Assembly (NCBI GenBank): GCA_021650915.1
Contig: CP091279.1
Span: 2,460,001-2,492,000, forward strand
Length of the DNA stretch: 32,000 nt
DNA from: Candidatus Brocadia sp.
GTDB taxonomy: Bacteria; Planctomycetota; Brocadiia; Brocadiales; Brocadiaceae
Direction: 5' to 3'
Shown: positions 5,763 through 15,762 of the stretch, piece after piece
Layout of the letters: every line of letters starts with the position of its first letter
Numbering within the stretch: position 1 is the stretch's first letter
Position numbers and translations under genes: made by a program
The notes under the pieces: model-generated
The model's database searches: none
Told to the model about the DNA's origin: nothing
What the model saw: only the letters and a program-made list of their open reading frames with translations

Positions 5763-5859
5763 GATACTTTAAATTCTCCTCCTTTCTCATTATCCATACG
5801 CCACAATCGTCATTCGATTGCGTTACATGACACAACAATCTTACCCTTTACTTTTTCAA

Positions 5860-5872
5860 ACCACCCCCTTTC
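5860..5872 (-). promoter_or_regulatory. Extended SD-like G-rich leader motif, copy 1 of 3
   Basis: The coding strand reads TTTTGAAAGGGGGTGGTTTG, 98 nt upstream of the HDH-like ATG. The same core occurs upstream of the HOX-like gene and hzsB. A separate canonical SD sits next to the ATG. Confidence 0.4.
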
Positions 5873-6062
5873 AAAATTTCATTTAACGTATAATCTCACT
5901 TGTTCTATTGTATCCTTTTCAGTAACACACAAGATGATTTTGAGGTGATATTTTCAGACAAGCAATTATACTTAATCTCATAGTTATGTCAATATAAAAA
6001 GTTAATTATTTTCGATTCACACGCTATCATTTGCATCATTTAAAAAAGATTTTTATAATGAA

Positions 6063-6866
6063 TTACCCCTTTGCCCCTGAAATCAATTGCTTTACAAAGT
6101 CACCCACACTCCTTATCAATTTTTCTGCGGGTTCTTTCTCAAATTTCACAATTTCTCGCATAATAGCGCTCCCTACGATCACCCCGTCGGCAACCGTACC
6201 GATCATCTTTGCATGATCTGATGTCGATACACCAAAACCAACGGCGACCGGCACCTTCGTCAACTGTTTCAGTCTCCCGATATTTTGAACAATATCATCC
6301 GGCAAGGCATCTCGTATTCCCGTTATTCCAACCACAGAAATGTAATATAAAAAACCCTGAGCCCTTTCGGCAATCATGGTCATCCGGTGGTCCGTTGTCG
6401 TCGGTGCGACAAAACAGATGATCTTAAAATTATTTCTCTCGGCTATCTCAAACAATTCAGAATTTTCTTCCACCGGCAGATCAGGGATGGTTAAGCCGTC
6501 CAGGCCTGCCTTCAGGGCATTTTCGATAAAATGCTGGCATCCTTTTTTGAAGACGGTGCTGTACGATACCATGGAAACGATAGGAATTTCCGATTTCTTA
6601 CGAACTTCTGAAACCATGTCTAAGATATGCGCAACCTTGACGCCCTTCATTAAAGCCCGATAATATGATGCCTGAATAATCGGACCATCTGCAATAGGAT
6701 CGGAAAAGGGGATGCCAAGTTCTATAATATCGGCACCCCTTTTCTCAAACTCCAGAATTAAATCCTTTGTAATTTGCAGGTCAGGGTCTCCTGCCGTGAT
6801 AAATGGTATAAAGGCGGGTTTTTTCTTTGCTTTTAATTCCTGGAACTTTTTATCAATCCGGTTCAT
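6063..6866 (-). CDS. trpA: Tryptophan synthase alpha chain
   Basis: 267-aa ORF with typical TrpA motifs (FIPFITAGDP, GADIIELGIPFSDPIADGPIIQ, GFLYYISVVGITG, PVAVGFGVS). It lies immediately downstream of trpB. Confidence 0.95.
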   Translation of the reverse strand: MNRIDKKFQELKAKKKPAFIPFITAGDPDLQITKDLILEFEKRGADIIELGIPFSDPIADGPIIQASYYRALMKGVKVAHILDMVSEVRKKSEIPIVSMVSYSTVFKKGCQHFIENALKAGLDGLTIPDLPVEENSELFEIAERNNFKIICFVAPTTTDHRMTMIAERAQGFLYYISVVGITGIRDALPDDIVQNIGRLKQLTKVPVAVGFGVSTSDHAKMIGTVADGVIVGSAIMREIVKFEKEPAEKLIRSVGDFVKQLISGAKG

Positions 6867-6922
6867 GAAATCCTTTGCCTGAAAAGGTTTTCCAAAGTAT
6901 CACGTGCGTGTAGTTGTCTTTC

Positions 6923-8170
6923 TTAAATCTCGTACCCAAGTTTTTTTGCGACCTCAAATGAATCCTTATCGCCGCTCCCCGAAAGACACACAACAATGAG
7001 CTTATCTTTGCTTATTCGTGGCGCAAACTTCATCGTGTAAGCAATGGCATGAGCAGCTTCGAGGGCTGGAATAATTCCCTCCAGCCTCGCACATTCCTGA
7101 AAAGCATTGACTGCTTCTTCGTCGGTAATCGAAACATACTCTGCCCTTCCAATATCCTTCAAATAACTATGCTCCGGACCAACCCCAGGGTAATCTAAAC
7201 CGGCCGATATTGAATGAACTGGCAATGTCTGCCCATCCTCATCCTGCAGCACATAACTAGCGCTTCCATGCAAGATACCTATTTTCCCACTTGTCAGCGT
7301 GGATGCGTGCTGGCCAATTTCTATGCCAAGCCCACCAGCCTCAACGCCAATCATATTCACTGTTTTGTCTTCAATAAAGGGATGAAATAATCCCATTGAG
7401 TTACTTCCGCCGCCAACGCAGGCAATTAAATAATCAGGCAGTCTCTGCTCTTTCTCCAGCATCTGCTTCCTGACCTCCTTGCCAATTATCACCTGAAAAT
7501 CCCGGACCATCATGGGATAAGGGTGTGGCCCAACTACCGACCCGATGATGTAGTGGGTATTCCTTACCGACGCCATCCAATCCCTGAGCGCCTCATTTGT
7601 TGCGTCTTTTAACGTCCTCGAACCACTGGCCACCGGTATTACCTTCGCCCCAAGGAGCTTCATCCTAAAGACATTCAGCGCCTGTCGCCTTATGTCCTCC
7701 TCTCCCATATATACTTCGCAGTCGATTCCAAACATGGCAGCAGCAGTCGCCGTAGCAACACCATGCTGACCAGCGCCTGTCTCGGCAATAATGCGCTTTT
7801 TACCCATCCTTTTGGCAAGCAATATTTGGCCGATGGTATTGTTAATCTTATGCGCACCCGTATGATTCAGGTCTTCCCGTTTTAAATAAATCTTTGCGCC
7901 ACCCAGCTTTTTCGTTAACCTCTCGGCATAATAGAGCGTTGAGGGACGCCCCACATATTCTCGTAAGTAATACTCTAATTCCTCATTAAAAGACGGATCT
8001 TTTTTAGCCTCAAAATATGCCTTTTCTAGCTGATCCAGAGCCGGCATTATCGTTTCGGGGACAAACTTTCCGCCAAAACGCCCGAAATGTCCCATCCTGT
8101 CAGGCAAAATCGTTCCTTCTGATATACCCTTAGATTTCTGTGTTTTCGATTGCGCTATTGTCGTTATCAT
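6923..8170 (-). CDS. trpB: Tryptophan synthase beta chain
   Basis: 415-aa ORF with [19 protein letters not shown], the PLP-lysine region [21 protein letters not shown] and GGGSN motifs. Confidence 0.95.
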
Positions 8171-9934: not shown

Positions 9935-10049
9935 TACAACCTCTCCTTTCTTTCTTAACCTATACCTTATAAACTACATTTATTACCTAACAGCCTCCTT
10001 AAAAACCTTAGGTAACCGTAGACACAACTAAATTTCTTTACCTGCCAAA

Positions 10050-12875: not shown

Positions 12876-13900
12876 TTACAGCGCCTTCAGGAATTCAACC
12901 AGGTCCTGCATCTCCTGCTGAGTCAAATGCGACGTCCTTCCATGCATGTCCTTCTCATTCACCGTGTTGTTGATCGTGTCTATCAACGTCCGGGCTCCCC
13001 CGTCATGGAAATACGTACCCGATGCATAAATATCCCTCAACGTCGGCGTGTCAAACTCCTTCACCAGGTCCAGCCCGATGATCGGCGTGTCACTCTCCTC
13101 GCCATAGGGATCTTCCCCTGCCTCTAATGCCTTCAGGTTAAAGACCTTTCCCGGCGTTGAACGGAAACCCTTTACCCCAACACGGCCCGTCCCCACGTCA
13201 TGGGTCTGCGCATCGCTAAAAAGCGCCTTCGGATCACTTGCATCACCCGGATGGCACTCCACACATCCCACATTCGGATCGTTGAATATCTTCTCGCCCT
13301 CTTCTGCGCATCCGTCAGCGAACCATCCGGATTCCTGAACGGACTTCCCGTGAATTCCAGCGCACGGATGTAGCAGATCAACGCCTCCAACCTCAATGGC
13401 GAAAAGTTCTCACTCCTGAACACAAACCCAGGGTCTCTTCCGCACACCCTGTCCAGCGAACTCGTTGCTCCCACGATCTCATCCGGATGTCCCGTGAATC
13501 CCTCATGACGGAACGGCGGCAAATACCTTCCCCCACGGATGTACTTCGTGTTCTTCCAGCTTCCCCATCCCTCATCACCAAGGTCCCAGATCAATCCCGT
13601 CGTCTGGCCCCTCTCGTAATGACAGCTCGCGCATGCATACTCACCCTGAAGACCCCAAGATGCATCGTTAAACTGGAACTGCCCGTACCGCACCAGCTCG
13701 CTCTTGTACGGTGAGTGCTTTACCCGATAATGCACCTCCGGCACCGTAAGCGGTTCTGCCCGCGGAAGCGGCTCCCACTCCGGCCCCGTCTGGATCGTCG
13801 CCACTACCTGCGGCGTACCGGCCATCAACTGGCCAGTCGTCGCTACCCCCATGATCCCCAGAGCGGCTATCAAACCGATCTTTTTTATTCCACTTTTCAT
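12876..13900 (-). pseudogene. hzsC: Hydrazine synthase gamma subunit (dihaem, CCP/MauG-like), frameshifted as assembled
   Basis: The start ATG at 13900 has SD TAAGGAGGAG and a signal peptide (MKSGIKKIGLIAALGIMGVATTGQLMAG). The first haem site CASCH lies in the frame of ORF 13172-14089. The second site CVECH lies in ORF 12876-13271, one frame over. The frames join at coding-strand CAGAAGAGGGCGAGAAG (plus-strand ccc at 13297-13299). Adding one G restores ...DAQKRGEKIFNDPNVGCVECHPG.... The span is 1025 nt, one short of a multiple of 3. Confidence 0.85.
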
Positions 13901-14004: not shown

Positions 14005-15135
14005 TTAATCCACCGGCGTCCTTATCACGGACACGTTGTTGGAAAAATAGTTCGCTGCATAGCAATACTTCCCATCCGGTGATAAACACACTGAGCTTGG
14101 CCCAAGTCCCGTCGGCACCCTGGCCACCAGATAATCCCTTACAAATCCAAGATCATCCCTCAGGTAATCCAGCTCCGCCTGTGAATTCCCGCGCACGGCG
14201 TTCAACACCTTCGCCATATCCAGGATCGTTACCCGGTGCATGCCTCTTACCCCAATATACAGATACCGGCCCTTCGGATCCATCGCCAACCCGTACGGAT
14301 TTCCATCGTAGTTGTTCAACTCATCCAGCGGCAACCGCGCTACCTTACCACCCGGCTTCGTCTCCAGCACCGCGATGTTGTTCGTAAAGACCTGCCCGTT
14401 CTCTGCCTCGCACACCGGCAACCAGTTCTTCGGCGTCTCATACGTCACCACCACATACTGCCCATCAGGCGTATATACCACATCCCTCAGGTTGGAACTC
14501 TCACGGATTACCCGCTTCTCAAGCACACGGCTCGTGTCCACATCAATAAAATTCACGCTCCGGCTAATCGAACCTACCGTGTCATTAATCACCGCAAGCG
14601 TCTTGCCGTCCGGCGATATGTCCAAGGTCCTTGGACCGTAATCACTCGTGTAGATCGCCCTCGTCTTCTCCATCCTCCCCGTGTCTATCACATCAACCGT
14701 GTTCCACATATTTCCCGAACATGCAACGTATGCCGTCTTCCCGTCTCTGGAAATCTTTATCCCGCTTGGCCAGTCCCCCACCTTGATCTCCTTGACGACC
14801 TGCTTGCGCGCCACGTCAATCACCGACACGCTGTCGCTCTCGGCATTGCATACATACAAAAACGCATTGTCCGGCGTTGTCGCCGCCGCCTCAGGCTGCA
14901 CTCCTACCGCAACCTCACCCGTCACCTTCTGCGTCCGGGCATCCACAAACGTCACGCTATGCCCCGACTGATTGCAGATATACAACGTCCCTCCATCCGG
15001 CGACGTCGTGATATGAAACGGCCCCGGCAGATCCGTCTTCACGTGTGTCCCCTGGATAAACCCAGCGCTCGACACACCCACCACCGACAGCACCGCTCCC
15101 ACTACCGCTGCTCCTATCCATCCTCTTCCTTTCAT
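14005..15135 (-). CDS. hzsB: Hydrazine synthase beta subunit (beta-propeller)
   Basis: 376 aa from the ATG at 15135 (SD GGAGGGAAGGAAG). The track start at 15225 adds a basic 30-aa extension that overlaps the leader. It has a signal peptide (GWIGAAVVGAVLSVVGVSSA). Repeated propeller blades are visible: SPDGGTLYICN, TPDNAFLYVCN, SRDGKTAYVAC, SPDGKTLAVIN, TPDGQYVVVTY, DPKGRYLYIGV, SPDGKYCYAAN. Confidence 0.9.
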   Translation of the reverse strand: MKGRGWIGAAVVGAVLSVVGVSSAGFIQGTHVKTDLPGPFHITTSPDGGTLYICNQSGHSVTFVDARTQKVTGEVAVGVQPEAAATTPDNAFLYVCNAESDSVSVIDVARKQVVKEIKVGDWPSGIKISRDGKTAYVACSGNMWNTVDVIDTGRMEKTRAIYTSDYGPRTLDISPDGKTLAVINDTVGSISRSVNFIDVDTSRVLEKRVIRESSNLRDVVYTPDGQYVVVTYETPKNWLPVCEAENGQVFTNNIAVLETKPGGKVARLPLDELNNYDGNPYGLAMDPKGRYLYIGVRGMHRVTILDMAKVLNAVRGNSQAELDYLRDDLGFVRDYLVARVPTGLGPSSVCLSPDGKYCYAANYFSNNVSVIRTPVD

Positions 15136-15251
15136 CGCTCTTCCTTCCCTCCTATATCTTCGATTTTTAGGAATATAAATCTGAAACTTTCTTAATACGC
15201 CATCCACATAACTTCTGAATCGCAAAACCTACCGCTTAAAAAATTTTCCCT

Positions 15252-15264
15252 ACCACCCCCTTTC
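15252..15264 (-). promoter_or_regulatory. Extended SD-like G-rich leader motif, copy 3 of 3
   Basis: The coding strand reads TTATGAAAGGGGGTGGTAGGG, 117 nt upstream of the hzsB ATG at 15135. GGATTATAAG lies about 30 nt further upstream, similar to GAGATTATACG (HDH-like leader) and CAGATATTACAAG (HOX-like leader). Confidence 0.4.
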
Positions 15265-15374
15265 ATAATTTGTTGGCTGGTCTTTGCGTCTTATAATCCA
15301 AATGCTAAAATTCTATTAAGACAAAAAACCAAACCGGAAGATACGTGAAAAAATTTATTGCGTGTATAGCATAG

Positions 15375-15390
15375 AGCAACAACCGTGCCG
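15375..15390 (-). promoter_or_regulatory. Candidate sigma-54 (-24/-12) promoter facing hzsB
   Basis: The minus strand reads CGGCACGGTTGTTGCT, against the consensus TGGCACG-N4-TTGCW. It matches at 15 of 16 positions, with the GG-N10-GC spacing exact. It lies about 240 nt upstream of the hzsB ATG and 373 nt downstream of the stop of a sigma-54-dependent activator gene. Confidence 0.6.
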
Positions 15391-15462
15391 TATTTTTTTC
15401 AACATCATGAGCAAACCGTAACTCTTTGTAAATAAACCTATTATAAAAATTATTGTGCAAAC

Positions 15463-15482
15463 AGTCTTTTAGGCAAAAGACT
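15463..15482. promoter_or_regulatory. Perfect palindrome, possible enhancer-binding-protein site (UAS)
   Basis: AGTCTTTT-AGGC-AAAAGACT is centred about 82 nt upstream of the -24 element. That is the usual distance range for bEBP binding sites. There is no independent support. Confidence 0.3.
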
Positions 15483-15762
15483 ATAATTGGTCACTACACA
15501 TTTCGATCTTTTTGTAGCACGAGTTCTATCTCGTTATAAAAAAAGGGTATAAGGCGTGACTATTTTTGGTCATAAAATTTCATTGTATTGTCACGTTTTG
15601 ATGCGTTTTTTTCAGTAAGAAACATCTCACCTTAGACAAAAAGTGCGGGAAACGAAGAATGTTCCAAACATAGATTCTTTCGATGTGAAATTATTTTTTA
15701 TTGAGCGCCTTGAGTTTATTGCTTTTGTAAGTTTTTCGTGATCAGGCTGCCGTTTCATAGTG

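Follow-up and report, generated by a model that had tools for sequence, protein, structure and literature searches.

Results

The stretch of DNA analysed here, which we call the window, comprises 32,000 nucleotides (nt) from a Candidatus Brocadia sp. (contig CP091279.1, positions 2,460,001 to 2,492,000) and carries the hydrazine synthase operon hzsBCA, a gene for an octahaem protein of the HAO family with a Hao_C domain, and the gene for HDH, all of the relevant genes being on the minus strand (Table 1). The leaders of hzsB, of HDH and of the HAO-family gene, which the original prediction termed HOX-like and for which we keep that name, each contain an orphan, extended Shine-Dalgarno (SD)-like element far upstream of the start codon. 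The original prediction, made from the sequence of the window, had placed this motif 117, 116 and 98 nt before the ATGs of hzsB, the HOX-like gene and HDH, and both its coordinates and these distances, counted from the 3' end of the motif, proved exact when the minus strand was read and searched by pattern. It had also stated that each of the three genes has a normal SD at its ATG, which we could read directly in the sequence and which is separate from the orphan element, and that the motif lies upstream of no other gene in the window. A pattern search of both strands with up to two mismatches found no further copies, and this search and the scoring of both strands described below return the three catabolic leaders only.

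Table 1. Features of the window discussed in the text, in window coordinates
Feature	Sequence	Position	Strand	Remarks
Orphan element, hzsB (hzsBCA) leader	GAAAGGGGGTGGT	15264-15252	-	117 nt before ATG 15135
Orphan element, HOX-like leader	GAAGGGGGGTGGT	10062-10050	-	116 nt before ATG 9934
The same with flanks	GGGAAGGGGGGTGGTT	10064-10049	-	All 15 tail nucleotides pairable
Orphan element, HDH leader	GAAAGGGGGTGGT	5872-5860	-	98 nt before ATG 5762
Genuine SD region, hzsB	AGGAGGGAAGGAA	15141-15153	-	Identical in orthologs
Genuine SD, HOX-like gene	GAAAGGAGAGG	9940-9950	-	Invariant block in ortholog alignment
Genuine SD, HDH	GAAAGGAGGAG	5776-5786	-	Invariant block in ortholog alignment
Genuine SD, hzsA	GAAAGGAGAAGG			
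Genuine SD, amt	AAAAGGAGG			
Predicted sigma-54-type -24/-12 promoter, hzs operon	cGGCACGgttgTTGCT	15390-15376	-	Motif ~100 nt downstream of predicted start
Predicted sigma-70 promoter, HOX-like gene	TTGACA-16-TATAAT	10159-10132	-	12/12 matches; predicted transcription start ~10125; motif starts ~61 nt into transcript
Predicted sigma-70 promoter, HDH	TTGACA-16-TATAAT	5992-5965	-	12/12 matches; predicted transcription start ~5958; motif starts ~86 nt into transcript
Conserved putative hairpin, HDH leader	CGCAATCG-AATGA-CGATTGTG	5822-5802	-	Between orphan element and genuine SD; eight inner pairs kept in 4-5 of 5 sequences
Conserved block, HOX-like leader	TTGTGTCTACGGTTACC	10011-10027	-	GGTTACC pairs with downstream GGTAAT in consensus fold
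Histidine kinase		19512-17176	-	Adjoins regulator gene
Sigma-54-dependent response regulator		17151-15763	-	
hzsB		15135-14005	-	NCBIfam equivalog match
hzsC, two overlapping open reading frames		14089-13172 and 13271-12876	-	Split
hzsA		12819-10348	-	NCBIfam equivalog match
HOX-like gene		9934-8327	-	HAO family, octahaem, Hao_C domain
HDH		5762-4020	-	NCBIfam equivalog, 1227 bits

Every 16-nt stretch of both window strands was folded against the 16S tail GAUCACCUCCUUUCU. The three orphan elements take ranks 1 to 3 in the window, at -22.1 (HOX-like), -21.7 (HDH) and -21.4 kcal/mol (hzsB) and with 13-15 contiguous pairs, while the next-best site, at -19.0 kcal/mol, lies inside an open reading frame (ORF) and the genuine SDs reach -14 to -17 kcal/mol. 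Dinucleotide-preserving shuffles of the window contain a mean of 0.19 sites at or below -21 kcal/mol, and three such sites arose in 0/200 of them, so that occurrence at background frequency, which the original prediction had named as a possible refutation, does not describe the data. The motif in the three leaders is far from chance.

The tail itself was checked by a metagenome scan for the sequence that immediately precedes the 3' end of the 16S rRNA and by examination of the rRNA contigs so found. Those that also carry the targets of the anammox probes Amx368 and Amx820, with what we take to be the sequences of these primers and probes, all end ...GCGGCTGGATCACCTCCTTTCTAAGGAG, which gives the 16S tail as GGATCACCTCCTTTCT (tail sequence GGAUCACCUCCUUUCU); CACCUCCUU is common to the 30S subunits of E. 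coli and B. subtilis. The motif 5'-(G)GAAAGGGGGUGGU(U) can pair with the entire single-stranded tail over 13-15 bp, of which 2-5 are G-U wobbles. The original prediction had taken the motif for an SD variant in which an A-to-G change would still pair with the anti-SD through wobble, and had asked for a comparison with the actual 16S 3' end. That comparison bears out the complementarity, in that two Gs of the motif, the one at this position and another close to its 3' end, face an rRNA U. The SD-type pairing stands, but its proposed limit to CCUCCUUUC does not, since the 13-15 nt take in the whole single-stranded tail.

A scan of a genome collection with an hzsB alignment yielded 57 anammox loci (designated by L numbers), to which look-ups of exact proteins added more. 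In the ortholog survey every ortholog was taken regardless of its pairing score, and the survey is free of ascertainment bias from pairing energy. On this basis the element is present in 14/14 HDH leaders, from Brocadia, Jettenia, Scalindua and deep-branching lineages, and in 8/8 HOX-like leaders of the Brocadiaceae, including one (L191) whose gene does not lie beside hzs. About 12 of the 17 Scalindua-type HOX-like leaders carry it; it is degenerate in L045 and L048, and absent in L026, L046, L047 and L050. Where hzsB is the first gene of its cluster, nine of ten leaders have the element (among them L003, L007, L010, L015, L016, L017, L020 and L054), and L011 has a shorter SD-like GAAAGGAGGAAG. 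Kuenenia contributes its hzs cluster only, of the type described below as A, its HDH and HOX-like leaders not having been recovered. In a scan of ~0.8 Mb of DNA from the anammox loci, intergenic sites that reached -18.5 kcal/mol or lower were found only far upstream of hzsB, HOX-like and HDH genes or at the head of an hzs cluster, where they are the genuine SD of its first cistron; a Jettenia locus added later contributes one more genuine-SD site, that of a cold-shock protein gene (csp).

The most telling result is the pattern of substitutions, which preserves the predicted pairing to the rRNA. It was read from 29 aligned instances of the three leader families and several genera, part of them ascertained by pairing energy and the instances being phylogenetically related. 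Motif positions 2-14 can pair with the 16S tail in 26-29/29 instances. Opposite an rRNA C, the motif has G in 27-29/29 instances and invariably at five of six positions, and the position opposite the equivalent of A1534 is always U. The variable positions 3, 5, 8 and 13 all face an rRNA U and swap almost exclusively between A and G (4 exceptions in 116 cells), and the columns that flank the motif are unconserved. Among the Brocadia leaders, mean pairwise identity is 0.88 within the motif, against 0.41-0.48 in the stretch from promoter to motif and 0.70-0.78 downstream, as though the motif marked the start of the functional leader.

Predicted promoters place the element inside the transcript. 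The perfect sigma-70 promoter upstream of the HOX-like gene is conserved in L001, L007, L008, L051 and L054, and that of HDH in L001, L007, L008 and L054, with similar strong promoters in L177, L178, L180 and L188. The sigma-54-type element of the hzs operon is kept as TGGYAYR-N4-TTGCW in all hzsB-first leaders, and a relaxed form, TGGTAYN-N4-NTGCT, lies upstream of the gene for a 181-aa protein that opens the type-A clusters of Kuenenia, Jettenia and Brocadia. In the window this element adjoins the gene pair for a sigma-54 activator and a histidine kinase. These predictions suggest that transcription of the hzs operon depends on sigma-54; a literature search, with subscription papers outside its coverage, returned no paper linking hydrazine synthase to sigma-54. 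The orphan element is always on the coding strand and downstream of predicted promoters of the two classes. Eight Scalindua-type HOX-like leaders have an intrinsic terminator, then a perfect TTGACA-17-TATAAT and, ~10 nt later, GAAGGGAGGTGAT. Because the -10 box ends ~10 nt before the element, the latter forms the extreme 5' end of the predicted transcript in these leaders, 165-245 nt from the ATG.

Consensus folds give short helices only, and leave the motif and the genuine SDs unpaired. The helices include the HDH hairpin and the GGTTACC/GGTAAT pairing of the HOX-like leaders, in neither of which were compensatory changes seen; it is conservation that suggests the HDH hairpin. In partition-function folding of 29 leaders, the genuine SD zones have predicted unpaired probabilities of 0.4-0.97 in most cases. 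The Rfam 15 covariance models gave no match at gathering score anywhere in the window. Several of the checks that accompanied the original prediction come together here: the alignment of orthologous leaders finds the motif conserved in many anammox lineages with substitutions that keep the pairing, and the motif falls within all three predicted 5' untranslated regions (UTRs), the promoters being predictions. Two further leader elements that had been put forward fared less well. The GAT(T)AT(T)A box does occur in all three window leaders, at 15298, 10087 and 5895 (5 found vs ~1.9 expected), but it is retained only in the closest relative, L001, and is not supported as a second promoter or a shared functional part. 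GTAAAG and TTGTGTC, taken to be common to the HOX-like and HDH leaders, are likewise not supported, as TTGTGTCTAC and the TTGTGTC are conserved among HOX-like leaders only and the HDH orthologs differ there.

Two other candidate explanations of the leaders were also set aside. An anti-SD mimic, ATCACCTC, lies at 5949-5942 (minus strand), roughly nucleotides +9 to +16 of the HDH transcript as predicted, and either the orphan element or the genuine SD could be its pairing partner; intramolecular sequestration was rejected as a general mechanism, ATCACCTC occurring in no orthologous leader. A G-quadruplex does not fit the Scalindua and deep-branching versions of the element (GAAGGGAGGTGAT and GAAAGGAGGTGGT), which are without G-runs and keep the complementarity to rRNA.

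The hzs clusters fall into two architectures. Those of Kuenenia, Jettenia and one Brocadia copy start with the 181-aa gene (type A; 5407-5952 in L182 and 9404-9949 in L186), the others with hzsB, and B. pituitae and other genomes carry both types. The 181-aa protein is Cys-rich with an N-terminal hydrophobic segment, and the real SD of its gene is GAAAGGGGGTGA. In type A the order is sigma-54 promoter, 55-95 nt, ATGAAAGGGGGTGA, 5-10 nt and the start of the 181-aa gene. In the window, the interval 15136-15762 (minus strand) has the same promoter and ATGAAAGGGGGTGG, the 181-aa gene is missing and the SD is orphaned; tblastn detected no remnant of the 181-aa ORF in the hzsB leader of the window. 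The extended GAAAGGGGGTGA is also the genuine SD of the Jettenia csp gene (L185, 19292-19320), 8 nt before its ATG, and from this position the wobble variant seems to act as a working SD in a further gene family, one that is typically highly expressed.

Some observations concern the catabolic genes themselves. hzsC is recognisable, yet its division into two ORFs brings its score below the NCBIfam equivalog cutoff. The split is a 1-nt deletion in a G run at ~13297-13299 (minus strand), GGG in the window vs GGGG in L001/L003 of B. pituitae, and stems either from a sequencing error in the homopolymer or from pseudogenisation of the gamma subunit. Between the HOX-like gene and HDH are wedged trpB and trpA (window 5763-6062 and 6063-8170, minus strand), an odd linkage that is kept in Jettenia (L186) and in another lineage of the Brocadiaceae (L191), also at loci that have no hzs next to them. 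A 558-aa HAO paralog, which databases also call hydroxylamine oxidoreductase (L189, L190, L193) and which belongs to a different operon (DUF1858, cupin, DUF2249), shares only ~55% identity with the HOX-like gene. No orphan element is present upstream of this paralog, and the true HOX ortholog may be either of the two genes.

Discussion

As judged from complementarity and conservation, the leader element is real, strongly non-random and conserved across the order, with the 16S tail as its clear molecular partner. We favour, with moderate confidence, the interpretation that it is a STAB-SD-like mRNA stabiliser on which ribosomes dock, that is, an element that would work like a STAB-SD, as an unproven member of that class. 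In such a scheme the element would be an orphan extended SD in the transcribed 5' leaders of the hzsBCA, HAO-like and HDH messages, at which a 30S subunit or ribosome would dock far upstream of the real ribosome-binding site. The docked ribosome would act as an obstacle close to the 5' terminus of the functional mRNA and may shield the message from decay that depends on the 5' end, be it by an RNase J-type 5'-3' exonuclease or by the scanning of RNase E/G. This shielding could help to keep very abundant catabolic mRNAs at a high level. The model would be independent of RNase J, because ribosomes bound in the 5' UTR are said to hinder the scanning of RNase E as well. Richards and Belasco reportedly described in 2019 how obstacles impede the scanning of RNase E from the 5' end, as a general principle and with artificial obstacles or those formed by small RNA and Hfq. 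By this principle a ribosome or other bulky ligand in the 5' UTR prolongs the life of an mRNA in organisms with RNase E, which would offer a plausible route in a planctomycete with no need to invoke RNase J, although a natural conserved orphan SD is no part of that work. Planctomycetes are reported to have homologues of RNase E/G (PMC3071783).

The likeness to the STAB-SD of Bacillus thuringiensis cry3A (Agaisse and Lereclus 1996; mechanism in Mathy et al. 2007; definition and mechanism as summarised in PMC4113751) had been pointed out in the original prediction. At the level of sequence it holds: both elements are SD-like and complementary to the 16S 3' end, and the one described here likewise lies far upstream in its leader and apart from the genuine SD. 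The cry3A promoter is also well upstream of the element, with a stable 5' end just before it, and the STAB-SD is internal to the long cry3A transcript as the Brocadia element is to its own. Complementarity, location in a predicted leader, conservation and substitutions that keep the pairing come from the sequences compared here, and ribosome binding, the stabilising effect and the nuclease that might be involved are carried over from cry3A by analogy. There are also differences. The complementarity in cry3A covers 9 nt, whereas here it spans 13-15 nt with G-U wobbles; and here the host is a planctomycete, three transcription units share the element, it is conserved across an order, its sequence doubles as a genuine SD elsewhere, and stabilisation is what we propose. 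In Bacillus the polypurine leader of SP82 and the leaders of gsiB, hbs and aprE are 5' stabilisers that depend on ribosome binding near the 5' end. They resemble csp and the hzs clusters of type A, in which the first cistron has the extended motif as its real SD; they differ from the orphan element in being mostly the genuine translation start site, and are single-gene examples from Firmicutes.

Several points weigh against a stabiliser. In Brocadia the motif is internal, 60-100 nt from the predicted transcription start, and therefore a processing step must be assumed. The literature search leaves the presence of RNase J in Planctomycetes unsettled, and for anammox bacteria it turned up neither mapped 5' ends nor half-lives nor data on ribosome binding. 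A subclade of Scalindua (L046, L047 and L050, with L045 and L048 degenerate) lost the motif but kept the terminator and the perfect sigma-70 promoter, and the motif is therefore dispensable there. The folding of leaders suggested in the original prediction, which finds the genuine SDs mostly open, was uninformative for the motif, whose unpaired probability of 0.14-0.72 in the 29 leaders is close to the leader averages. The instance counts overstate independence because the instances are phylogenetically related. Lastly, a start codon (TTG, ATG or GTG) follows the GGTG of the motif within 0-4 nt in 61% of 36 instances vs 33% in the background, and translation of a mini-ORF is thus possible.

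On this last observation one could build the explanation that the motif is the working SD of a tiny upstream ORF, either a mini-ORF or a start-stop such as the ATG-TAA of L056 and L011, whose translation or arrest would regulate or protect the message. We regard this as improbable. Genuine starts that follow the same sequence, those of the 181-aa gene and csp, are spaced 5-10 nt from it, and at this functional spacing start codons are depleted in the leaders (14% vs 37% background). The ORFs that follow the motif have 0-37 codons, and their presence, length, frame and peptide sequence all differ between orthologs, so that no conserved leader peptide or upstream ORF emerges; in 13/36 instances there is no start codon within 15 nt of GGTG, and most of the close TTG codons derive from a conserved GGTGGTTTG run in related leaders. 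A ribosome standby site or translational enhancer, which we consider unlikely but the strongest of the rivals, would share with the stabiliser both the complementarity and the conservation: the orphan SD would capture a 30S subunit and hand it to the genuine ribosome-binding site, raising initiation and not mRNA stability. Standby sites ~100 nt upstream are known for tisB, and conserved structured elements do lie between the motif and the genuine SD. However, standby sites of the E. coli tisB type are unstructured, lack strong SD complementarity and serve a structured, occluded ribosome-binding site, whereas here the site is a near-perfect complement of the anti-SD and the genuine SD is predicted to be open, not sequestered, and would have little need of one (in itself a weak argument). 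A duplex of 13-15 bp and ~-21 kcal/mol should moreover hold a subunit and not release it, and the very variable distances to the ATG (~90-245 nt) and the 5'-terminal position of the motif in Scalindua both fit a function at the 5' end better.

In a further explanation, the element binds something other than the ribosome. That three separately transcribed catabolic units have it in common is what one would expect of a regulator site, and the ligand might be an RNA-binding protein such as CsrA, a small RNA, or a common DNA-binding regulator; purine-rich leader sites of the GGA type are typical of CsrA. Half of the instances, however, read GGGGG and so lack a GGA, the choice of fixed and variable positions is exactly that dictated by the rRNA tail, and the element is not palindromic. 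It is found on the coding strand alone and downstream of promoters of two sigma classes, and both the 181-aa gene and csp use the identical sequence as their genuine SD. Together these points make a non-ribosomal ligand very improbable. We give slightly less credence still to a functionless relic, which in the hzsB leader would descend from the SD of a lost 181-aa first cistron, consistent with type-A clusters that share the layout of promoter and motif and with a window that lacks the 181-aa gene. A relic should decay, yet no other part of the leader is as well conserved as the motif, whose full pairing persists in ~10 hzsB-first lineages, with no detectable trace of the 181-aa ORF; and a relic would leave the HDH and HOX-like leaders of Brocadia, Jettenia, Scalindua and deeper lineages unexplained.

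A STAB-SD-like stabiliser therefore remains the explanation we prefer, and the Scalindua loci L045-L048 and L050, in the ~230-300 nt upstream of the HAO-like gene, form a natural comparison set for loss of the motif. The literature search, again with subscription papers outside its coverage and a prior description hence possible, returned no published account of the element or of 5' UTR motifs, and the Kuenenia MBR1 genome paper is without an analysis of transcription start sites or UTRs. If the element were only a translational enhancer or a relic, it would amount to a minor annotation note. If the stabiliser is confirmed, the STAB-SD principle would extend from Firmicute toxin genes to an energy-metabolism regulon of a planctomycete, the promoters, leaders and true starts at these loci would be better annotated, and a strong promoter with a stabilising leader would become available as expression parts for anammox and planctomycete genetics.

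Few proteins of anammox bacteria are as abundant as HZS, HDH and the HAO-like proteins. These bacteria are very slow growers and not yet amenable to genetic manipulation, and the basis of this high expression is not understood. An element in exactly the leaders of these genes offers a concrete hypothesis for it. More speculatively, it can be envisioned that the element is a post-transcriptional module common to the core catabolic transcripts (HZS, HDH and the linked HAO-like enzyme) of all anammox lineages, in which free 30S subunits would dock through the whole 16S tail and set the lifetime of the message; we hold this wider reading to be possible but doubtful. Were it true, it would be the first STAB-SD-type system outside Firmicutes, operating in bacteria with RNase E/G and maintained throughout a whole bacterial order, and how much catabolic machinery is supplied would depend on the number of ribosomes that stand idle.

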